DNA of 32,324 nucleotides from Verrucomicrobiales bacterium. Lineage in GTDB: Bacteria; Verrucomicrobiota; Verrucomicrobiia; Verrucomicrobiales; SLCJ01. The stretch is taken from the NCBI GenBank assembly GCA_046075565.1, contig JBJTQJ010000018.1, positions 1 through 32,324 on the forward strand, in the 5' to 3' direction. Each line of letters opens with the position of its first letter. Within the stretch, counting starts at the first letter, position 1. The notes under the pieces are model-generated. The model had not been told where the DNA came from, made no database searches, and saw nothing but the letters and a program-made list of their open reading frames with translations. Below are positions 1 to 24,208 of the stretch, in pieces. A program made the position numbers and the translations under genes.

Positions 1-70
1 AACCCAGATGCCGGTTCTCCACCCCGCATTCCTTGATAACGGTGGTCCAGATATGATCAAAGTTGTTCAT
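1..70 (-). CDS. Possible 5' end of a gene running off the window (MNNFDHIWTTVIKECGVENRHLG...)
   Basis: ATG at 70-68 on the minus strand, open to the window edge, preceded by an AT-richer intergenic stretch (71-286); too short to assign a product. Confidence 0.3.
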   Translation of the reverse strand, partial: MNNFDHIWTTVIKECGVENRHLG

Positions 71-286
71 CGGGAAAATTGGCGACTTCTTGACAAAAGC
101 GGGATGCACGTCTGCCGCAGTGAATACGCGCAACCCCCCGGATGAATTTTCGGGAATCATGGTGGCAGGTCGACAAAAAAGCCCCGCTTGGCGTTTAAAT
201 TATTCCGTCAGGGAAAAAACAGCTAAAGGCGGTCGGGTTAAGAGTAAAACCTGTCTGCCGGGCTCACCGACCGTGCGGGTGCGCGG

Positions 287-682
287 TCAGAACGTCCGGC
301 GCAAACTGCCATTGACGTATTCCGCAGTCCGGCCGCTCTTGAGCTCGGCAAATACAGTCCCCTGTTGAACGCGCACACGGATAGCGTTCATACCGTATGT
401 GCGGACCCGTGACCCATTTTTGTATTCGGCGATTCTTCCGTCTTTGGTCACTCCGGCCACGATCACTCCATCCGTGGCCACATCAACCAAATTGCTCCCG
501 TAAGTTCTACGCAGGGAGCCCTTGGCGTATTCCTGGATGCGGCCATCCTTGAGCCTGACGGAGCTAGATCCGGCATCGCTGGCATGGCTACCTGGGCATA
601 CCAAACAAAAAGTTCCGAAGACGAGAAACCAGGCAAGTTGCAATGACCTGGGTTCGATTTTGAATCGTGGCGTGGCGTTCAT
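287..682 (-). CDS. Small secreted hypothetical protein with ~2.5 internal 35-aa repeats
   Basis: N-terminal hydrophobic signal-like segment ending SHA-S; repeats KDGRIQEYAKGSLRRTYG / KDGRIAEYKNGSRVRTYG / KSGRTAEYVNGSLRRTF. Confidence 0.7.
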   Translation of the reverse strand: MNATPRFKIEPRSLQLAWFLVFGTFCLVCPGSHASDAGSSSVRLKDGRIQEYAKGSLRRTYGSNLVDVATDGVIVAGVTKDGRIAEYKNGSRVRTYGMNAIRVRVQQGTVFAELKSGRTAEYVNGSLRRTF

Positions 683-728
683 TTGACCAAACGAGTTGGG
701 ATTGGATGAGGGAGTGGGTTGTTTCGGA

Positions 729-754
729 TGAGGCGGACCCGAAAGTCCGGCCAG
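729..754 (+). repeat. IS3 left terminal inverted repeat
   Basis: Exact reverse complement of 2190-2215. Confidence 0.95.
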
Positions 755-816
755 TGGCTAAGCTATGATTATGGTGGTCGGGTGCGGGTAACAGCCCTAA
801 CCTAAACGACACCAAA

Positions 817-1116
817 AGGAAAGCAAAAAGCAGAAGACACGACCCTGAATTCAAGGCCCGGGTAGCGCTCGAAGCGCTCAAGGGCATCAAGACCATCCAG
901 CAAATCGCCAAGGATTTTGACGTCCACCCGGTGCAAGTTTCCGATTGGAAGAAGGCCATGCTGGAAGGTGCCAGCGGGATATTTGGCCACTCTCGGGAGC
1001 AGGCTGGCTCTGAGGCGGATTTCGAACGCCAACGTGAAGAACTGCACGCCAAAATCGGGCAGTTGGCCGTTGAGGTAGACTTCCTGCGAAAAAAGTCCAG
1101 ACAACTCGGACTGTGA
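817..1116 (+). pseudogene. IS3 transposase OrfA (HTH); start codon apparently mutated (AGG at 817-819)
   Basis: Frame reads (R)KAKSRRHDPEFKARVALEALKGIKTIQQIAKDFDVHPVQVSDWKK...LHAKIGQLAVEVDFLRKK, a typical OrfA; no in-frame ATG/GTG/TTG between the TGA at 766-768 and the GTG at 931. Confidence 0.75.
1089..1095 (+). other. -1 programmed ribosomal frameshift heptamer A_AAA_AAG
   Basis: CGA AAA AAG in the orfA frame; a -1 shift enters the orfB frame with no stop before 1113; canonical IS3 signal. Confidence 0.85.
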
Positions 1117-16004: not shown

Positions 16005-16721
16005 ATGCGCGTTCACTATTTACAGCATGTCGTCTTCGAAGGCCCGGGGGCTATCGCTACCTGGTTGCACGAACGTCGGTTCCGCGTCACCCGCACGGCC
16101 TTCTATGCCAAAGAACCTCTGCCCATGCCCTCCGAAATCGACGTGCTGATCGTGCTCGGCGGCCCGATGAGCGTGCACGATGAATGCAGTGTCGGTTGGC
16201 TCTCGGTGGAGAAGGCATTTCTCCAGGCGGTGATCGACGCGGGCAAACCCGTTCTTGGCATTTGTCTGGGAGCCCAACTGATTGCCGAGGTGCTGGGCGG
16301 CGAAGTGCGGCGCAATCCATGGCAGGAAATCGGATGGTGGCCGGTGCGGGGGCTCCCCGGCGCCGATGGTGCATCCATCCACCGCTTCCCTGAGGAGTTC
16401 ACGGCCTTCCATTGGCACGGGGAAACATTTGATCTACCGACCGGTTCCACCCTCCTCGCCAGTTCGCCCGCTTGCCCGAATCAGGCCTTCCAGTGGGGTG
16501 ACCGGGTCATCGGCCTGCAATTCCACCTCGAAACCACCGACGATGGATCGGCGGTGCTCATCGAACGTTGTGCCCAAGAGATGTTTCCGGGTCCTTGGGT
16601 GCAATTCGCCGCCACCATCCTCGATGCACCTCAGTCCCACTACGACAAAGCACAGGAAGAAATGGCCCGCCTGCTGGAATTCCTTTGCGCCAAGGTCGAG
16701 AGCGAACTGACCTTGGCCTGA
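16005..16721 (+). CDS. Type 1 glutamine amidotransferase
   Basis: LQHVVFEGPG, LGGPMSV, GICLGAQL (Cys), WHGETF and QFHLE (His-Glu) motifs; start set to ATG 16005. Confidence 0.9.
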   Translation: MRVHYLQHVVFEGPGAIATWLHERRFRVTRTAFYAKEPLPMPSEIDVLIVLGGPMSVHDECSVGWLSVEKAFLQAVIDAGKPVLGICLGAQLIAEVLGGEVRRNPWQEIGWWPVRGLPGADGASIHRFPEEFTAFHWHGETFDLPTGSTLLASSPACPNQAFQWGDRVIGLQFHLETTDDGSAVLIERCAQEMFPGPWVQFAATILDAPQSHYDKAQEEMARLLEFLCAKVESELTLA

Positions 16722-16736
16722 TATCCGCCTCCACGT

Positions 16737-17492
16737 ATGACCGTCCAAACGCCCATCCTGGAGGCCCGGCAGCTCGTGAAACGTTTCGACGGTTTCACCG
16801 CTCTTGATGGACTCTCTTTTTCCATCGCGCCTGGAGAATCACTCGGTCTGTTAGGCGTCAATGGAGCCGGCAAGACCACCGCCATGAACCTGCTGCTCGG
16901 GCTGACCACCCCGACCTCCGGCAGCGTGCGGATTTTCGGCCTCGATTTCTGGAAACACCGGGAGGAAATCCTCCGCCAAACGAATTTCACTTCCGCCTAC
17001 ACCAACCTGCCATCCAATCTGCTGGTCTGGCAGAATCTGCTCGTCTTCGCCCGGCTTTATGGAGTGCCTGACGCGAAAGCCCGCATCGATGAGCTGCTCG
17101 AACTGCTCGACATCACGCACCTGCGCAAGTCGGTCACCGGGCGCCTCTCGGCCGGCGAGTCCACCCGCGTGAACCTCGCCAAGGCCCTGCTCAATCGACC
17201 GCGCCTCCTGCTTCTCGACGAACCGACCGCCTCGCTGGATCCCGATATCGCCGACCGTGTCCGTAAACTCCTGCGCCGTCTCCAGGCCGAAACCGGGCTT
17301 ACCCTTCTCTACACTTCCCACAACATGCGCGATATCGAGGAAGTCTGCGACCGCCTCATCTTCCTGCACGGCGGGAAAGTCCTCGCCGAAGGCACTCCCG
17401 GCGATGTGCATTCCAAATTCAACCGCTCCTCCCTCGAAGACCTCTTCATCGGCGTCGCCCGCGGGGAAATCGATGCCATGGGGATCGAGTGA
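16737..17492 (+). CDS. ABC transporter ATP-binding protein (ABC-2 exporter type)
   Basis: Walker A GVNGAGKT, signature LSAGE, Walker B LLLLDEPT, H-loop TSH. Confidence 0.93.
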   Translation: MTVQTPILEARQLVKRFDGFTALDGLSFSIAPGESLGLLGVNGAGKTTAMNLLLGLTTPTSGSVRIFGLDFWKHREEILRQTNFTSAYTNLPSNLLVWQNLLVFARLYGVPDAKARIDELLELLDITHLRKSVTGRLSAGESTRVNLAKALLNRPRLLLLDEPTASLDPDIADRVRKLLRRLQAETGLTLLYTSHNMRDIEEVCDRLIFLHGGKVLAEGTPGDVHSKFNRSSLEDLFIGVARGEIDAMGIE

Positions 17493-17667
17493 GGATGGGA
17501 AAGGCCAACAAAGAGCGGACTTAGGGGCCTTCATCGGAGTCGGCAAAAAGTCGCAGAATCAGGATTGGGCGAGATGCCTGTTGGGCCCTCGGGGAGCGGG
17601 CGTCGCTCCTTGAACCGTAGCCGCACCCGGTTTGCGCGTTCTTTCCGATTCAATCCGCGTATTTTCC

Positions 17668-17715
17668 AAAGGGGACCGTTTCGTCATGTATTTTGCTGAC
17701 CAAAGAGTCGGTACT
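17668..17715 (+). promoter_or_regulatory. Two candidate operator sites GAC-N6-GTC upstream of the nifJ-like gene
   Basis: GAC-CGTTTC-GTC (17674-17685) and GAC-CAAAGA-GTC (17698-17709); a similar site lies before the Rrf2 gene. Confidence 0.35.
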
Positions 17716-17732
17716 GGTCTTGCTTGTGCCTA

Positions 17733-19700
17733 ATGAACGCACCCACAGTTCCCGTCATGGGCACACTCGACGCCAACGAGGCGGTCGCCTCGGTTTCCTA
17801 CCGGCTGAACGAGTTTTTCGCAATTTACCCCATCACTCCATCCTCGCCGATGGCCGAATTCGCCGATGAGTGGTCGGCTGCGGGCCGGAAAAACATCTGG
17901 AATGTCGTGCCGAGTGTGGTCGAAATGCAGTCCGAGGGCGGGGCCGCCGGAGCTTTGCACGGCGCGCTGATGGCCGGATCGCTCTGCGCCTCGTTCACCG
18001 CCTCGCAGGGATTGCTTTTGATGATCCCGAACATGTATAAAATCGCGGGCGAACTGATTCCCTTCTGCCTGCATGTGACAGCCCGGGCGCTGGCCACGCA
18101 TGCCCTGAGCATCTTCGGCGACCATTCGGATGTCATGTCCTGCCGTCAGACCGGATTCGCGATGCTGTGCGGAAATTCCGTCCAAGAAGCGCAGGACTTG
18201 GCGGTGATTTCGCAGATGGCGACCCTGCGCTCGCGGGTTCCTTTCCTCCATTTCTTCGACGGCTTCCGCACTTCCCATGAGGTCTCGAAAATTGCATTGC
18301 TTTCCGACGACGACCTCCGCGTCCTCATGGATGACCAGGCGATCGCGGCCAATCGTGCGCGCGCCCTCACGCCGGATCGTCCGGTGGTGCGGGGCACGGC
18401 CCAGAACCCGGATGCCTTTTTCCAAGCCCGCGAAGCGGGTAACCAGTTCACCGATGCCGTGCCCGGTATCGTTGTCGCCGCCATGCAGGCTTTTGCTGAA
18501 CGAACCGGCCGCGGCTACAAGCCCTTCGATTACGAGGGGAGCGAGGATGCGGAAGATGTGGTGGTCATCATGGGCTCGGGCGCGGAAGCGGTCGCCGAGA
18601 CCGTCGAATGGCTGAATCGGAACGGACGGAAGACCGGGGTCGTCAAAGTTCGCCTTTATCGTCCATTCTCCGTCGAGCATTTCGCGGCCGTCCTGCGAAA
18701 GTCGGTGAAACGGATCGCCGTGCTCGACCGGACCAAAGAACCGGGGGCCCTCGGTGTACCGCTTTATCTCGATGTCGTGGCCGCCTTGCGCCAGGCCGAA
18801 CGTCTCGGTCTGATGAAGAACACATCGGCCATCACGGTGACCGGTGGTCGTTACGGACTCGGCTCCAAGGAATTCACCCCCGCGATGGTGAAAGCAGTCT
18901 TTGATGATCTGGCGGGCCCATTGCCGAAGCCGGAATTCACGGTCGGCATCAATGACGATGTGACCGGACTCTCCCTCGCTTATGACCCGGACTTCGAGGT
19001 CATCGGATCGGAAGTGAAACAATCCATCTTCTTCGGGTTGGGCTCGGATGGCACGGTCGGCGCGAACAAAAACAGCATCAAGATCATCGGCGAATCCACC
19101 GACAATTTCGCGCAAGGCTATTTCGTTATCGCCTATTCGAGTGTCAGCCACATGGGTTTCGTTTTGCTCGGGCTCGCCAGCGGGAACCGTTGGGGCACCG
19201 GCGGTGCGGTGCTACAGATGATTTCCCACGGGTTGATTGCCGGATTGCTGTTCGGTCTGGCCGGACGCGTTGTCTACGATCGCGTGCATGTGCGCGAGTT
19301 CGAGGCTCTGGAAAAAGAGAATCTCTGGAGCCGGTTGCGCTGGGGGGCGGTGGCCTTCATCGTGGCGAGTGCAGCTTCGATGGGACTGCCCGGTTTCAGC
19401 GGATTTGCGGCCGAACTTTCCGTTCTCCTCGGGGCATGGTCGGCCTTCCCATGGTTGGTCGCTCCCGTCGTGCTTGGTGTGGTCGTCACCGGCGCTTTCA
19501 CCCTGCGGGCGATTCAGAAGGGATTCCTGCCACAACGTGAATCCCGCGCCACCACCGCAACCAGACCGCTGCCTCCTCTCACCTGGCCCGAAATTTCCGC
19601 CACGGTCCTGTTGCTGGCTGCGTCACTCGCCATCGGCTTGTATCCCGCGCCCTGGTGGGCGTGGGTGCTGGATGGACTCCATTACTCATTGGCACCGTGA
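17733..19700 (+). CDS. Chimeric ORF: N-terminal pyruvate:ferredoxin/flavodoxin oxidoreductase (NifJ) fragment fused in frame to a C-terminal NuoM fragment (likely a non-functional remnant or an artefact)
   Basis: 17733-19127: AIYPITPSSPMAE, EMQSEGGAAG, FTASQGLLLM, FFDGFRTSHE, GGRYGLGSKEF, GLGSDGTVGANK, AQGYFV (NifJ). 19128-19700: IAYSSVSHMGF, QMISHG, SMGLPGFSGFAAE (NuoM). Confidence 0.85.
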   Translation: MNAPTVPVMGTLDANEAVASVSYRLNEFFAIYPITPSSPMAEFADEWSAAGRKNIWNVVPSVVEMQSEGGAAGALHGALMAGSLCASFTASQGLLLMIPNMYKIAGELIPFCLHVTARALATHALSIFGDHSDVMSCRQTGFAMLCGNSVQEAQDLAVISQMATLRSRVPFLHFFDGFRTSHEVSKIALLSDDDLRVLMDDQAIAANRARALTPDRPVVRGTAQNPDAFFQAREAGNQFTDAVPGIVVAAMQAFAERTGRGYKPFDYEGSEDAEDVVVIMGSGAEAVAETVEWLNRNGRKTGVVKVRLYRPFSVEHFAAVLRKSVKRIAVLDRTKEPGALGVPLYLDVVAALRQAERLGLMKNTSAITVTGGRYGLGSKEFTPAMVKAVFDDLAGPLPKPEFTVGINDDVTGLSLAYDPDFEVIGSEVKQSIFFGLGSDGTVGANKNSIKIIGESTDNFAQGYFVIAYSSVSHMGFVLLGLASGNRWGTGGAVLQMISHGLIAGLLFGLAGRVVYDRVHVREFEALEKENLWSRLRWGAVAFIVASAASMGLPGFSGFAAELSVLLGAWSAFPWLVAPVVLGVVVTGAFTLRAIQKGFLPQRESRATTATRPLPPLTWPEISATVLLLAASLAIGLYPAPWWAWVLDGLHYSLAP

Positions 19701-21178
19701 ACCCTTCCGAACTCATCCGACTTCTTCTGCCCGAAGCCGTTCTCCTGGCGGCGGCTTTCGTGCTGCTTTCTTTTATAGCCGTGCCAAAGTTGCGCTAGGC
19801 GCATCCCGCATGGTCGCGGTTTGTCGCCCTCGCTGGATTCGTCGGCGCCGCCGCCGCCATGCTGCTCAAGGTTCCGGCGATCGATGGCGAGATGCCAAGC
19901 AATCCACTTTTCCGTCCGGATGGATTGGCCGATGTCGGGCGATTGTGGATCTTCCTGCTCGCCATTCCTGCGGTGATCACGCCGCCGAGTCGGAATGACG
20001 GACGCGCCCATGAGCATCTGGCTTTGATATTGTTTTCCGTGATTGGTCTATCGCTCGCGGTTGTTTCCGACCATCTGCTGATGCTGTTCGTGGCTCTTGA
20101 ACTGGCGGCGCTTTCATTCTACCTGCTCGTGGCTTGGAACCGAACCCGCGAGTCGGCGGCGGCGGGTATCCGGTTCTTCCTTTTCGGCGCGGTGGCCTCG
20201 GCGTTTTTTCTCTACGGGTGCAGTTTGATTTACGGGTCGGTTCCGCAATTGACCTTCCCCGCGATGCTGGAGCGATTCTCGAAGGTGCCGGTGCCGGATT
20301 TTGCCATGCTCGGCATTCTCATGATCGTGCTCGCCCTCGTTTTTAAACTCGCCGCCGCCCCGTTGCATGGGTGGGCCCCGGAGGTTTATGAAAAGGCGCC
20401 GGCACGGGTCGTCTTTCTCATCGCTGGCGCTTCGAAAGTCACGGCCTCCCTGGTGTTGGCCAAACTCTGTCTCTTTGCCTTCCCCCAACTCGCCGGTTCG
20501 GCGATATGGGGTGCCATGAAGCCGGGATGGACCCTCTGGTTTGCCGTCCTCGCGGTGGTCTCGATGATCTGGGGAAACTTTCTCGCCCTCGGGCAAAATT
20601 CCGTGCGCCGCTTGCTCGCAGCTTCGGCCATTGCGAATGCCGGATACGCGCTCGTCGGATTCGCCTCCGGCGGTGCGGGAGGGATCTCCATGGCGGTCCA
20701 TCACATGATTGTCGATGGCCTCGCCACCACCGGTGTGCTGGTGATTACCCATCGGGTGGTGGCCACGCGGGGAGGGGACTCGTTGGATCATTTCAGGGGC
20801 TTAGCGCGGCGAGACCCATGGCAGGCGGCGGCCTTGGTGATTTGTCTTGGTTCCTTGGCCGGACTGCCCCCCATGGCCGGCTTCTTTGGAAAATTCCAGC
20901 TTTTCGCCGCGGTTTTGGCGGAAACCGGTAACGGACTTCTCTGGCTGGTTGCGCTGGGAGCGGGACTGAGCGCGGTTTCCCTCTACTACTATCTGCGGGT
21001 TTTGCGTCGCGTCTTCGAGCGCGGGGAAGGGGAGCAAGAGGAAGGCGCCGAGGGCTTGCCCCACGCCGCTCTTTGGCCGATGACCGCGGTTCTCGGTCTC
21101 GGATTGCTGCCCTCCGTGCTGCTGGGCCCGCTTTTCCACGCGGTTTCGGAAGTGCTTTCGGCGATAGCATTGCCTTGA
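19697..21178 (+). pseudogene. nuoN: NADH-quinone oxidoreductase subunit N with an in-frame TAG at 19796-19798
   Basis: GTG overlaps the upstream TGA; MNPSELIRLLLPEAVLL is in the same frame as the 19859 ORF; LFVALEL, ESAAAGIRFF, FKLAAAPLHGWAPEVYE, SLAGLPPMAGFFGKF and SLYYYLR motifs. Confidence 0.85.
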
Positions 21179-21199
21179 CGACCACGGATTTCACGATTA

Positions 21200-21222
21200 A
21201 TGGTGACGTAGCTATCCTTTTA
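21200..21222 (+). promoter_or_regulatory. Candidate Rrf2 autoregulatory site GAC-N6-ATC
   Basis: GGTGAC-GTAGCT-ATCCTTTTA immediately before the Rrf2 start codon. Confidence 0.35.
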
Positions 21223-21773
21223 TGAACATGCTGTCCATGACCACCGGTTACGCGGTTTCCGCACTTTCTTTGATGGTGCAACGACCGGACGAATACATTC
21301 TGATTCGCGATATCGCCGAAGTGACAGGGGTGCCCGCGCCCTACCTATCGAAGGTGGCGCAGCGTTTGGTTGATCTCGGGCTCTTGGAATCAAAACGCGG
21401 TTATCGCGGTGGTGTCCGTCTGGCGGTTCCGGCGGAAGAATTGACCATTCTCCGAATCGACGAGGCGTTGGACATGGGGGACAACCGCCCGCGCTGTCTG
21501 CTCGGAGGAGTCGAGTGCAGTGACGAGAGGGCTTGTCCGGCGCATGAATTTTGGAAATCGACCCGCAAACAAATCCAAGAACGTCTGGCATCGCTGACCC
21601 TCGCGGATGTCACGGCCTTCGAGAAACATAAAACCGATTTCACGCCCTTCAATCCCGTGCGAAGGGAGCGCAAGGTTCCGAAGAAATACCGGAAACGGAA
21701 GACAGCCAAAGCGCCGGTGTCCAAAGCAACTGGTAAAGCCGCGAAGAAGAGCCGACGCAAGAAGAAGTCTTGA
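21222..21773 (+). CDS. Rrf2-family transcriptional regulator with an Fe-S Cys cluster and a Lys/Arg-rich tail
   Basis: IAEVTGVPAPYLSKV, LLESKRGYRGG, CLLGGVECSDERACPAHEFW. Confidence 0.92.
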   Translation: MNMLSMTTGYAVSALSLMVQRPDEYILIRDIAEVTGVPAPYLSKVAQRLVDLGLLESKRGYRGGVRLAVPAEELTILRIDEALDMGDNRPRCLLGGVECSDERACPAHEFWKSTRKQIQERLASLTLADVTAFEKHKTDFTPFNPVRRERKVPKKYRKRKTAKAPVSKATGKAAKKSRRKKKS

Positions 21774-21802
21774 GAGCGAGTGTTTCTCGTCGGTATTCAA
21801 AT

Positions 21803-22546
21803 TCATCGGCGCGGGCTTCCGAACCAACGCCGTATTCCAAACCCCAGCACGGCCATGGCCATCATGAAAGCATGCCGTGCACGCACATGGCCACCGGGTT
21901 GTTCTCTCCAATGGATGGGCAATTCCCGCAAGGTATAACCACGCTGATGCAGGGTGAGAGCGAGTTCGATATCGAAGGCGAAGTCGCGGCGCTTCAGATC
22001 CGCGCGAATGTCCTGATAAGCCGCGGTGGGCAAAGCCTTCAGCCCGCACTGTGTATCACGGACTGGCAGACACACCAGGACGTGGGTCAGGAGCCGGAAA
22101 CCGAAGCCGACGAGGTCGCGCAGTAGCGAGCGTTCGACTCCCTCCGCTTGCACCCGCGAGGCGAACCATGCCGTCTTTTGCGGACCTGCAATGGCTTCCG
22201 AAAGCAGACGGCGTGTTTCATCGGCGGGAACGGCTCCATCGGCATCCACGAACGCAAGCCAATCGCATTCTTCAACGAGGTGATTCCATCCGGAGTGCAC
22301 GGTGCCGCCTTTGCCGATGTTTTGGGGCAAGCGGAGGACAGGGCGGACATCAACGTGAGAACCATTTCGAACCGAATCGACAAATTCGGAGAGTTTGGTT
22401 GCTTCCACTTCGCCCGAACCATCATCGACAACTTGCACCACCACTCTGGCAGGCAACGTTGCAAGCTCGCCCAGCAACGCGGGAAGAAATTTTGGCAGAC
22501 GTGTGCTTTCCTTGAAACAAGGAATGACCAACCCGATAACAGACAA
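21803..22546 (-). CDS. Glycosyltransferase family 2 (polyprenol-phosphate glycosyltransferase-like)
   Basis: VIPCFKE, VDDGS, NIGKGG, FVDADG, DTQCGLK and FAFDIEL motifs. Confidence 0.88.
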   Translation of the reverse strand: MSVIGLVIPCFKESTRLPKFLPALLGELATLPARVVVQVVDDGSGEVEATKLSEFVDSVRNGSHVDVRPVLRLPQNIGKGGTVHSGWNHLVEECDWLAFVDADGAVPADETRRLLSEAIAGPQKTAWFASRVQAEGVERSLLRDLVGFGFRLLTHVLVCLPVRDTQCGLKALPTAAYQDIRADLKRRDFAFDIELALTLHQRGYTLRELPIHWREQPGGHVRARHAFMMAMAVLGFGIRRWFGSPRR

Positions 22547-22580: not shown

Positions 22581-24053
22581 TCAATTGCCTAGGCTTTCAG
22601 ATTCCGTCAAGCGGGCCGCGACCAAAGCACTTGCGGGAAGTCGAATCTTCTGGCCTTCTTGCAAAGGAGCATCTACCGGCAACGAATTCATCGCCGCCAA
22701 TTCTTCGCGGGAAAGGAAGTAACGTTTTGCGATCGAAAAGATCGAATCACCGAGATGAACCGTGTATTCGGCCATTTCAACTCCTTGGGCAGCGGCTGCG
22801 GGCTTCGCGGCAGGGCGCACGGAAGCACCGTCATTGTTGCGTGGTGGTGTCGTGGTCGAGGGAGAGGCGCCACCTCCGGCGGGTCCACGCCGAATCTTCA
22901 ACGATTGTCCCGGATGAATCGTATCATCCTTCAGGTTGTTTACTTTCCTCAGTTCATCAATTGGAGTATTCGTTTGGCGTGAGATGGAGGAGAGAGTATC
23001 GCCGGGTTTCACGATGTGGGTGCCAGGCGTGGGTATGCGAGGTTTTTCCGGCTCAGTTGGTTGCGTGGATGGGGCGGGTGCCGCGACGCTTGTGCCATCA
23101 GGTAGTTTCAACTTCATGCCAATCTGGATCGTCGATGGATTGGCGATACCGTTGATGCGGCAAAGCGCATCAACGGTTGTGCCGGAGCGACGGGCGATGG
23201 AATGCATTGTGTCACCGGACTGCACCACATAGCTGCCGGAAACGGCAGGGGCGGTCGGTTGGGTGTTGGTTGTCTCCGGCGGAGCGACTGGAGCGACAGC
23301 AACCGCGGCTGCGGAGCCTGACTTTAATTTGATCTTCTGACCAAGTTGCAATTTCTCCGGCACCAGGCCTGGATTGACTTTCAGCAACTCGGCTACCGTC
23401 GTCTTATTGCGCCGGGCGATGGCACTGAGGGTATCACCTGGTTGCACCGTCACTTCGTTGGCATTCGCCACCACGGGAGGAGCGACTGGTTCTGGAGGTC
23501 TCACCACCGGGGGCGAAGGCGGAATGGGGTCTACTGGCGGGGGAGCGGGGGGCTGAACCACGACCACGGGCGGAGTTGGAGGCGGAGCAACAGGTTCCAC
23601 GACCGGAGCGGGAGGTGGTGGGGGAGGAGGAATTGGCGGGGTGACAACGGCGACATCCGGCATTGGCGGAGGCGCTGGAACGGGCGGAGGGGGCGCGGTA
23701 ACCGGCGGAACTTCATTCAGCGGGACAGCGGGACGCACTTCCACCGGAGGAGTCGGGGCTGGTCCAGGATCGGGACTCGGAGGTGGCGGCGGATCCGGAG
23801 ATGGGGCAGGGGCAGGGGCAGGAAGCGGGGCGGGCTCGGGAGCGGGGCGCTCCGGTTCACGGCGAGGCAAAGGCGTGCCTTCTCGGCCAAGGCGATTGGA
23901 AAGACTCTGGATTTCGGCATCAAGGGCGAGGATCTCCGTCATCTGCTTTTCCAACCGCCCGCGGAGAACACCCATTTCTGTCGAGCTGTTTTCGGCCATT
24001 GCCAGCGAGGAACACGTGAGAGCAAGGGCGAGGGGGAGAGGCTTTAGTTTCAT
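22581..24053 (-). CDS. Secreted protein with a short coiled coil, a long Pro-rich linker and four LysM domains
   Basis: Signal peptide from ATG 24053; LysM starts VQPGDTLSAIA, VQSGDTMHSIA, VKPGDTLSSIS and VHLGDSIFSIA. Confidence 0.9.
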   Translation of the reverse strand: MKLKPLPLALALTCSSLAMAENSSTEMGVLRGRLEKQMTEILALDAEIQSLSNRLGREGTPLPRREPERPAPEPAPLPAPAPAPSPDPPPPPSPDPGPAPTPPVEVRPAVPLNEVPPVTAPPPPVPAPPPMPDVAVVTPPIPPPPPPPAPVVEPVAPPPTPPVVVVQPPAPPPVDPIPPSPPVVRPPEPVAPPVVANANEVTVQPGDTLSAIARRNKTTVAELLKVNPGLVPEKLQLGQKIKLKSGSAAAVAVAPVAPPETTNTQPTAPAVSGSYVVQSGDTMHSIARRSGTTVDALCRINGIANPSTIQIGMKLKLPDGTSVAAPAPSTQPTEPEKPRIPTPGTHIVKPGDTLSSISRQTNTPIDELRKVNNLKDDTIHPGQSLKIRRGPAGGGASPSTTTPPRNNDGASVRPAAKPAAAAQGVEMAEYTVHLGDSIFSIAKRYFLSREELAAMNSLPVDAPLQEGQKIRLPASALVAARLTESESLGN

Positions 24054-24208
24054 GGCTTGGAGAGCTTTTCCGAGGCGGAACTTGAATTTTTGGAATTCCC
24101 GTACGCTAAAATGCCGGGAAATGCGGCAAATGGCAAGAAAAATCCCTTCACACCCCGCCATCATCAATCTTTCCAGATTTTTAAGAATAATTGCGTTTTG
24201 CGGAAAAA

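Follow-up and report, generated by a model that had tools for sequence, protein, structure and literature searches.

An in-frame nifJ-nuoM fusion in a freshwater Verrucomicrobiales genome as the probable scar of a deletion within a nifJ-nuo operon

The fused frame and the genes behind it

The window, that is, the whole stretch of 32,324 nucleotides that was analyzed, belongs to the metagenome bin G000 of a Verrucomicrobiales bacterium, which consists of 129 contigs and is rated 100% complete. An open reading frame on its forward strand combines the 5′ part of nifJ, encoding pyruvate:ferredoxin oxidoreductase (PFOR), with the 3′ part of nuoM2, and is followed by nuoN and a regulator gene of the rrf2 family (Table 1). 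The likely true start of the frame is the ATG at position 17757, which gives the database entry P0001 of 647 amino acids.

Table 1. Features of the fusion locus in the window. X1, X2, and X4 denote sequencing runs.
Feature	Position	Strand	Basis and remarks
Fusion ORF	17724-19700	+	TTG 17724 to TGA 19698-19700; 658 amino acids
5′ stump of nifJ (pyruvate:ferredoxin oxidoreductase)	17724-19127	+	Pfam, TIGR02176, homology to relatives
Probable deletion junction TTCGTT (Phe-Val)	19122-19127	+	Sequence; common to both parent genes
3′ stump of nuoM2	19122-19700	+	TIGR01972, tblastn, hydropathy; TGA 19698-19700
nuoN	19697-21178	+	GTG start and nuoM stop overlapping in GTGA; N-terminus aligned with NuoN of seven relatives
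Polymorphic nonsense codon TAG in nuoN	19796-19798	+	CAG in X1 and X4, TAG in X2
rrf2-family regulator	21222-21773	+	Pfam Rrf2 at residues 5-131; directly after nuoN

The NifJ portion of the fusion comprises the PFOR domains I and II, recognized by Pfam as POR_N at residues 24-253 (E 6e-79) and PFOR_II at residues 276-360, and extends some 25 residues into domain III. In the full-length NifJ encoded at the related locus L094, Pfam additionally detects domain III (POR), EKR, the two-[4Fe-4S] domain, and TPP_enzyme_C, none of which is found in the fusion. Residues 13-473 correspond to positions 2-453 of the 1167 positions of the NCBIfam NifJ model TIGR02176, and with 727.8 bits, below the cut-off of 911.35, the protein does not rank as a full-length NifJ. 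The NuoM portion represents the last 192 residues of NuoM2, with about five hydrophobic helices according to hydropathy, while the first 293 residues are gone. Proton_antipo_M is matched at residues 468-587 (profile positions 174-292 of 294), and the NuoM model TIGR01972 is covered from position 300 to 474 of 486 with 146.3 bits, which is below the cut-off of 263.8, so that the fusion is no full-length NuoM either. The Pfam and TIGRFAM model positions thus confirm the in-frame, linker-free union of a NifJ N-terminus with a NuoM C-terminus that had been recognized in the preliminary description. Both sides of the join are alike in GC content (0.60-0.62) and GC3 (0.71-0.74). A scan of positions 17400-22000 yielded no sigma-70-like promoter site, versus 1.4 expected, and three terminator-like sites, versus 6.4 expected, none of which is meaningful.

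Across the join, the sequence reads ...CAA GGC TAT TTC GTT ATC GCC TAT TCG.... The tblastx match to the nifJ genes of relatives stops at position 19127, and the tblastn match to intact NuoM orthologs begins at position 19122, which corresponds to residue 294 of 485; the join is therefore seamless, with Phe-Val being common to both parents. The corresponding nifJ motif, TTC GTN TAY, is present in ten of the eleven relative loci scanned, with L014 (G002) giving no match, and the nuoM2 motif, TTY GTG ATC, in seven of eight, the exception without match being L208. At the break, the intact NuoM2 orthologs P0002-P0007 read KFVIAYSS. Beyond it, nifJ would run on into ...TAYGAYTCNAAR, and the nuoM2 side is preceded by ...AAR. 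Since TTCGTT is common to both parent genes, the junction coincides with a microhomology of five to six bases, and the earlier proposal that its codons fit either parent is borne out, with both parents encoding Phe-Val as TTC/TTY GTN.

The nuoN gene behind the fusion is related to intact NuoN orthologs of 495 amino acids, to which it is 74-89% identical. In the haplotype of the window, its frame is broken by the TAG at codon 34, so that an uninterrupted frame for the NuoN model TIGR01770 is not available; the 439-amino acid frame restarting at ATG 19859 reaches 277.9 bits, the cut-off being 332.6.

The parent operon in relatives and the parts missing from the bin

In relatives, the parent genes are members of one same-strand cluster with the order nifJ, DHO_dh-like gene, rrf2, nuoABCDIHJKL, nuoM1, nuoM2, and nuoN. 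The DHO_dh-like gene lies directly 3′ of nifJ in all 13 metagenome loci that are at least 75% identical in the N-terminal part of NifJ and have usable sequence beyond nifJ; L059, which ends with nifJ, is outside this count. It is followed by rrf2 and then nuoA in each of the ten loci that extend far enough, and at L078, L088, and L094 the cluster runs on through nuoD, nuoH, nuoL, and a NuoM gene. The distal order nuoL-nuoM1-nuoM2-nuoN is seen at L182 and L130-L135, with L182 also having the DHO_dh-like gene, rrf2, and nuoA at its start. At L046 (G210), L048 (G085), L094, and L182, a nuoABCDHIJKLMN cluster with a second NuoM and without nuoEFG is present; of this operon type, the window retains only the nuoM2 tail and nuoN, so that no two-NuoM complex I is encoded there. 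The loci used for collinearity are about 80% identical in NifJ and about 62% in NuoM2, and it is from these relatives, more distant than those with P0004, P0007, P0121, and P0122, that collinearity is inferred. With the parent genes in one same-strand cluster, a loss between codon ~467 of nifJ and codon ~294 of nuoM2 would amount to approximately 13.8 kb.

The suggestion that nifJ, nuoM, nuoN, and rrf2 would be collinear in relatives holds for the order and strand of nifJ and nuoM-nuoN, but not for rrf2, which sits between the DHO_dh-like gene and nuoA. The Rrf2 protein of the window, which is the sole homolog of its kind in the bin, is 36-42% identical to the relatives' proteins encoded at that site and 47% identical to the one encoded directly upstream of nifJ in G002. 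As the identity to the relatives' rrf2 is only about 40%, a deletion alone fails to explain the position of the gene, and because rrf2 is located after nuoN here, and before nuoA or, in G002, before nifJ elsewhere, at least one further rearrangement or another ancestral order is needed. The gene is possibly the regulator of the operon in a lineage-specific position. These observations, together with the lack of synteny between the flanks of the window and the nifJ neighborhoods of G003 and G002 (except for rrf2 in the latter), would be accommodated by a multistep rearrangement, in which a different ancestral order, with rrf2 either adjacent to nifJ, as G002 has it, or after nuoN, was changed by a deletion combined with either a transposition or an inversion. 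Such a history is rather unlikely to account for the fusion itself: the conserved order and strand of the stumps and the seamless junction are what would be expected of a single deletion, and for the regulator to lie at the opposite end of the operon, no event at the junction is required.

Searches of the bin for the missing parts recovered only the stumps. With the TIGR02176 profile, the nifJ stump and two weak, unrelated matches were obtained, and the missing nifJ part was not found. Intact NuoM2 orthologs (P0002-P0004) matched in tblastn with residues 294-485 alone, at 92-95% identity, the other NuoM matches being paralogs of at most 34% identity. An ortholog of the DHO_dh-like gene was not found in the bin; for nuoA, nuoD, nuoH, and nuoL of this operon type, only paralogs of 38-45% identity were present, and blastn of positions 17601-20000 against the bin revealed no second copy. 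A NuoM-like gene cut by the end of contig C123 was considered as the missing half and rejected, being a paralog with 26-29% identity to P0002-P0004 and without DNA overlap with the window. The bin contains three genes of the E1_dh family and a weak match only to the AceE-type pyruvate dehydrogenase E1 (TIGR00759).

Junction support, haplotypes, and sequence decay

A Logan contig of run X1, 2938 bases in length and 17.9-fold in depth, aligns without gap over positions 18780-21717 and thus includes the junction; the adjoining X1 contigs have depths of 16.1, 18, and 16.4. Together with its neighbor, this contig differs from the window by seven single-nucleotide polymorphisms within 17594-21717 (4.1 kb), and it therefore represents a second haplotype with the same junction. 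In the low-depth runs X2-X4, no piece bridging positions 19122-19127 is among those listed. The support consists of independently assembled Logan contigs from one study, and such contigs show presence, not absence.

An assembly or amplification chimera, for which the preliminary description had named an unspanned junction and the presence of the missing halves on other contigs as hallmarks, would imply that two loci were misjoined and that the real genome carries intact nifJ and nuoM2. The fragmented nature of a 129-contig metagenome bin, the restriction of the support to the level of Logan contigs from a single study, and the lack of a bridging piece listed for X2-X4 would be in line with this possibility. 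It is nevertheless very unlikely, as the independent X1 assembly spans the junction at flank depth (17.9 versus 16-18) in a haplotype seven polymorphisms apart, and neither missing half occurs in the bin, which has a completeness rating of 100%. Moreover, the stumps keep the order and strand of the relatives' operons, and the composition is equal on either side. Assemblers work with words longer than six bases, and an overlap of six bases cannot seed a k-mer join. A tandem duplication or excised circle, an idea derived from the rrf2-nifJ adjacency in G002, was also considered and discarded; the depth is flat at 16-18 across positions 16500-22000, and the genes on either side are ordinary and present in single copy.

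Intact counterparts of both stumps occur in close relatives. The NuoM2 proteins P0002-P0007 (485 or 486 amino acids) are 90-95% identical to the nuoM2 stump, and the intact NifJ proteins P0121 (1192 amino acids) and P0122 are 94% and 91% identical, respectively, to the nifJ stump. P0121 is encoded on a 9.4-kb contig. The possibility that the same junction would recur elsewhere was examined and found no support: none of 40 related genomes contains a NifJ::NuoM fusion, 13 of them having full-length NifJ frames of 1190-1270 amino acids, and among the best 120 of 7643 protein matches, region 400-658 is covered to 100% only by the window's own P0001, the others reaching at most 74%. Judged from these sequence comparisons, the deletion is recent and private, since close orthologs are intact and the fusion is a singleton.

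Two substitutions at conserved NifJ positions (LRKSV and GVPLY) had been taken as decay. Both are real, corresponding to P325R and E345V, but only the former is shared by X1, which also has R325 where Pro is found in 120 of 120 homologs. At residue 345, where 116 of 120 homologs have Glu, X1 and X2 read GAA (Glu), so that E345V is confined to the window haplotype and is not fixed. In nuoN, the window haplotype carries Q34stop, Y335H, and Y340D (Tyr in 115 of 115 homologs). X1 is ancestral at all four places, that is, NifJ E345 and NuoN Q34, Y335, and Y340. For the nonsense codon, the T>C change at position 19796 accounts for 17.9 of 17.9 of the depth in X1, 3.5 of 3.5 in X4, and 0 of 4.5 in X2. 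The differences between X1 and the window comprise five amino acid or stop changes and two silent ones. Over all runs, 14 non-silent versus six silent variants are found in the two remnant genes, many of them in contigs of depth below 5, where variants, including two extra stop variants in X3, may be errors or derive from other organisms.

The distance to outgroup homologs is larger for the window than for the nearest sister in seven of seven comparisons for NuoN, in seven of nine for the N-terminal part of NifJ, and in five of eight for the C-terminal part of NuoM, the excess being small. At conserved sites, private changes are essentially lacking in the NuoM stump; its one real private residue, Q604, lies in a variable column and is polymorphic. 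The control homolog P0124 likewise has two private residues at conserved NifJ columns. Small as the numbers are, P325R, E345V, the nuoN stop, Y340D, the non-silent excess, and the slightly longer branches may be regarded as signs of relaxed selection.

These data bear also on the view that the fusion is functional, with a membrane-anchored N-terminal PFOR fragment kept under selection, for example, for docking or regulation together with NuoN. Although 658 codons are open, the frame has kept its native start together with the region upstream of it, and the C-terminal stump keeps its hydrophobic helices with almost no private substitutions, a function of this kind is extremely unlikely. The fusion has neither a ferredoxin domain nor a TPP diphosphate-binding domain and little of domain III, an invariant Pro is replaced in what is a singleton, and the presumed partner nuoN has a stop codon and an invariant-Tyr change in the window haplotype. 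Variants are mostly non-silent, and chance alone puts one third of deletions in frame.

Origin of the fusion and comparison with known systems

The best explanation, to which a probability of roughly 0.87 is assigned, is that a single recent deletion removed about 13-14 kb from a nifJ-nuo operon and left the fusion as its scar and, hence, as a chimeric pseudogene. The spanning X1 contig, the absent halves, the collinearity in relatives, and the shared Phe-Val support the microhomology-mediated deletion of many kilobases, leaving two decaying stumps, that had been envisaged at the outset. Illegitimate recombination or replication slippage would have joined the TTCGT(T) of nifJ codons ~466-467 to that of nuoM2 codons ~294-295. 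By this event, nifJ would have lost its 3′ two thirds and nuoM2 its 5′ 60%, and the DHO_dh-like gene, nuoA-L, and nuoM1 between them, probably along with an rrf2 gene, would have disappeared altogether. Because the Phe-Val codon pairs are in the same phase, the stumps are read through as one frame of 647 or 658 amino acids, which would be transcribed from the retained nifJ upstream region. Without the PFOR domains III-VI, which provide for CoA binding, hold two [4Fe-4S] clusters in a ferredoxin domain, and bind the TPP diphosphate, and without the first two thirds of NuoM, the product could function neither as a PFOR nor as an antiporter-like subunit and most probably lacks a function. The orphaned nuoN behind the fusion would be starting to decay. 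The fusion is an ordinary deletion remnant of a freshwater bacterium and no new enzyme.

Annotation pipelines will mislabel the hybrid as PFOR or NuoM, and in a metabolic reconstruction of the bin it should earn no credit for PFOR or a second complex I. The locus further offers a clean, datable case in which an uncultured freshwater population has lost an operon through microhomology, with two haplotypes bearing the same scar and different later damage.

A by-product of the analysis, which may matter more, is the tightly packed cluster of nifJ, the DHO_dh-like gene, rrf2, and a two-NuoM complex I without NuoEFG in the relatives. For the 11-subunit type of complex I that lacks NuoEFG, the electron donor is treated as an open question in a passage of PMC11238625, and the Nitrospira-type 2M complex I with its extra NuoM is described in a section of PMC9040806, where Chadwick et al. 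2018 is cited. The relatives' operon resembles these types in gene content, with nuoABCDIHJKL, two NuoM genes, and NuoN but no nuoEFG. By its genomic context, the nifJ-nuo cluster speaks for ferredoxin derived from pyruvate oxidation as the donor of the NuoEFG-less complexes. More tentatively, the scar could record the loss, before further decay was fixed, of a Verrucomicrobiota respiratory module leading in one operon from PFOR via ferredoxin to a complex-I-like enzyme. This operon would then tie the 2M NuoEFG-less complex I to its electron source, and its repeated erosion, here and in loci retaining only nuoA, could conceivably mark the oxic adaptation of freshwater lineages. In a bolder version of this reading, the chimeric protein itself might be made, inserted into the membrane, and have some effect on the cell.

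With regard to its parents, the fusion matches NifJ/PFOR (TIGR02176) over domains I and II and into the beginning of domain III, but lacks everything past model position 453; with NuoM (TIGR01972), it shares the last 192 residues, 92-95% identical to those of intact 485-amino acid orthologs, but not the first 293. Microhomology-mediated (illegitimate) deletion is a known source of chimeric pseudogenes in bacteria. To these the fusion corresponds in its seamless in-frame join, the repeat of five to six bases, the lost intervening genes, and the private, recent event. Nothing substantial sets it apart from them, and the availability of close relatives with intact genes and of a second haplotype makes it a well-resolved case.

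Junction of the nifJ and nuoM2 remnants

The fusion of the 5' part of nifJ, encoding PFOR, to the 3' part of nuoM2, the second NuoM gene of the complex I operon of relatives, is a real, recent and private deletion scar, that is, a chimeric pseudogene. The preliminary description of a NifJ N-terminus joined in frame to a NuoM C-terminus proved correct to the base in the ORF, in the Pfam and NCBIfam matches, and in the junction sequence. In NCBIfam, fusion residues 13-473 correspond to positions 2-453 of the 1167 of the NifJ model (727.8 bits; cut-off 911.35), and residues 468-647 to positions 300-474 of the 486 of the NuoM model (146.3 bits; cut-off 263.8). Since the PFOR domains that bind TPP diphosphate and iron-sulfur clusters and NuoM residues 1-293 are missing, the product is a member of neither family.

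Features of the window around the junction, and contigs of sequencing run X1 aligned to it
Feature	Position	Strand	Remarks
nifJ-nuoM2 fusion ORF	17724-19700	+	658 aa, ORF listing
POR_N	fusion residues 24-253		Pfam
PFOR_II	fusion residues 276-360		Pfam
Proton_antipo_M, final two fifths	fusion residues 468-587		Pfam; profile 174-292 of 294
TTCGTT at the join	19122-19127
nuoN	from 19697	+	GTG start, overlaps nuoM stop; N-terminus aligns with seven relatives
rrf2	21222-21773	+	directly after nuoN
ORF	22581-24167	-	528 aa; long proline-rich stretches; repeated segments resembling LysM by eye
X1 contig	16500-17592		depth 16.1
X1 contig	17594-18778		depth 18
X1 contig, spans junction	18780-21717		2938 bases; depth 17.9
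X1 contig	21688 onward		depth 16.4

The DNA at the join reads ...GGC TAT TTC GTT ATC GCC TAT TCG...; homology to nifJ of relatives stops at the last base of TTCGTT, and homology to intact NuoM orthologs starts at its first, corresponding to residue 294 of 485. In close relatives the genes are intact and encode NuoM orthologs of 485-486 aa (P0002-P0007; 90-95% identity over the stump), reading ...LKFVIAYSSVSHMGF in the break region, and NifJ proteins 94% (P0121, 1192 aa) and 91% (P0122, 1200 aa) identical to the stump. By motif matching, nifJ at the break is CAR GGN TAY TTC GTN TAY GAY in 10 of 11 loci of relatives, and nuoM2 is AAR TTY GTG ATC in 7 of 8. The join thus lies within an identity of five to six bases, in line with the FV/TTCGTT microhomology proposed earlier, and the fusion frame stays open because these bases have equal codon phase in both genes. 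No extra bases are inserted, and this seamless signature suggests that illegitimate recombination or slippage at the microhomology would have produced the join.

That the fusion is an assembly or amplification chimera is very improbable. The window makes up all of contig C18 in bin G000, which comprises 129 contigs (3.9 Mb) and is rated 100% complete. The stretch is present in four runs (X1-X4), all of one freshwater-metagenome study, whose independently assembled contigs were aligned to window positions 16500-22000. An X1 contig crosses the junction without gaps, extending 342 bases to one side of it and 2.6 kb to the other, at the depth of its flanks (contig level). Because seven positions in this contig and its neighbour (18362, 18757, 18800, 19534, 19796, 20699, and 20714) do not match the window, X1 is a separate haplotype with the identical junction; at 18800, the window base is found in none of X1-X3. 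GC (0.60-0.62) and GC3 (0.71-0.74) are likewise alike on either side. No joint or loose end falls on the TTCGTT among the run contig pieces listed, a set short of 86 pieces and 73 loose ends, though contigs cannot prove absence. At 18380-18424 (conserved NifJ motif) and 17196-17231 (conserved ABC-ATPase motif), contigs of other organisms from all four runs align briefly and then diverge; they inflate depth at these sites, and some of the low-depth variants may stem from them.

Missing gene parts and signs of decay in the remnants

The missing halves, sought on other contigs, are nowhere in G000. Across its contigs, besides the stump, the NifJ model gives only two weak hits, both unrelated; P0002-P0004 match only residues 294-485 (92-95%) and otherwise paralogs at ≤34%. 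On contig C123, a NuoM-like gene truncated by the contig end is a paralog (26-29% identity), not the missing half. NuoL/M-like genes outside the canonical nuo operon of contig C78 lie on C123 (this gene, at 5-1066, minus strand) and on C72, and probably belong to Mrp-type or other antiporter-like clusters. The DHO_dh-like, NuoA, D, H, and L proteins of a relative's operon find nothing in G000, or the C78 operon at 38-45%. C78 also carries nuoF, so a standard complex I is retained in this organism. The genome further encodes three members of the E1_dh family.

The junction was found nowhere else: when fusion residues 400-658 were searched, the protein of the window itself was the sole one to cover it among the best 120 of 7643 matches, and none of 40 related genomes, 13 of which have NifJ frames of 1190-1270 aa, contains a match spanning both parts.

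The NifJ stump carries six residues private among 120 homologs, two of them at conserved columns: P325R (Pro in 120/120) and E345V (Glu in 116/120). Four of five control homologs have no such change and P0124 has two. Both substitutions (LRKSV, GVPLY) had been noted as fitting decay; X1 shares R325, but V345 is polymorphic, X1 having Glu. The NuoM stump shows no private change at any conserved column. In nuoN, codon 34 (19796-19798) is TAG in the window and X2 and CAG in X1 and X4. H335 and D340 of the window replace Tyr, the residue at both sites in X1, X2, and the eight closest homologs, apart from Phe at 335 in one of the eight; Tyr340 occurs in 115 of 115 homologs. Over the remnant genes, five non-silent and two silent changes separate X1 from the window; all four runs yield 14 non-silent (three being stops) and six silent changes, many of which come from contigs below depth 5 and could be errors or of foreign origin. 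Compared with its nearest sister, the window lies farther from outgroup homologs in 7/7 NuoN, 7/9 NifJ-N, and 5/8 NuoM-C (three ties) comparisons, by 0-3.5 points. Taken together, these signs would fit recent loss followed by neutral drift, short of proof. Two stages of decay are seen in one population: sites 19796-19798, 20699, 20714, and 18757 are altered in the window and ancestral in X1, which has the identical deletion. The window haplotype would accordingly appear further along in drift.

Gene order in relatives

NifJ and NuoM matches on contigs of the same sizes (28410, 75975, 30815, 40533, 179414, and 67177) gave a hint of linkage. In a metagenome scan with P0121, 15 loci were found to encode NifJ at about 80% identity. 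A DHO_dh-like gene comes next after nifJ in all 13 loci with usable sequence beyond (L059 ends with nifJ), and rrf2 and then nuoA in all 10 reaching further; L078, L088, and L094 continue through nuoD, nuoH, nuoL, and a NuoM gene. A genome scan with the NuoM ortholog alignment added loci of Akkermansiaceae, Luteolibacter, and Haloferula with the order nuoL-nuoM1-nuoM2-nuoN, nuoM2 being the ortholog of the stump (59-63%); L182 starts with DHO_dh-like-rrf2-nuoA. Gene spacing in L094 and in L182 puts the two Phe-Val sites about 13.8 kb apart.

The collinearity nifJ...nuoM-nuoN-rrf2 considered in the preliminary description therefore stands, in these more distant relatives, for nifJ and the nuo genes (L078, L088, and L094 for nifJ to nuoL and a NuoM gene; L130-L135 and L182 for nuoL-nuoM1-nuoM2-nuoN) and fails for rrf2, which precedes nuoA. 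The rrf2 of the window lies at the opposite operon end. Its product is 36-42% identical to Rrf2 encoded before nuoA in relatives and 47% to that encoded directly before nifJ in the related genome G002; at 183 aa, against about 136 aa in relatives, it carries a long C-terminal tail rich in Lys and Arg. Either the regulator was ancestrally at the other operon end in this lineage, or a second event occurred.

Summarizing, junction, absent halves, gene order of relatives, and uniqueness support the original reading of a microhomology-mediated deletion with decaying stumps. Such a scar is an ordinary kind of thing, well resolved here.

The nifJ-nuo operon and its probable erosion

The cluster of the Verrucomicrobiota relatives, nifJ, DHO_dh-like, rrf2, nuoABCDIHJKL-M1-M2-N, lies tightly on one strand (L094:9959-23559; also L078, L088, L050, L182, and L130-L135). 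By Pfam, L094 has the order nifJ, DHO_dh, Rrf2, NuoA, B, C, D, I, H, J, K, L, M, with genes overlapping or tightly packed and none for NuoE, F, or G. G210 and G085 have the NuoEFG-less two-NuoM (2M) operon without adjoining nifJ; in L198 (Opitutae), nifJ-DHO_dh lie convergent directly behind nuoN. Seven metagenome loci extend 8 kb or more past nuoA; in four of them (L051, L053, L055, and L058), nuoA alone remains behind nifJ-DHO_dh-rrf2, and nuoD, H, L, M, and N are all missing. A DASS-type symporter, absent from the other three, and outer-membrane genes follow in L051 (13227-15153). These nuoA-only loci suggest that the operon has eroded more than once, at different breakpoints. It deserves separate study.

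As predicted from gene content, the operon would connect a complex I lacking NuoEFG with an enzyme that reduces ferredoxin. A 2M type is described for Nitrospira in the relevant section of PMC9040806, citing Chadwick et al. 2018. For the 11-subunit enzyme, the corresponding section of PMC11238625 leaves the donor unresolved and proposes PFOR, via ferredoxin, on expression grounds; the relatives' operon adds evidence, from genomic context, that this complex-I-like enzyme has PFOR/ferredoxin as its donor.
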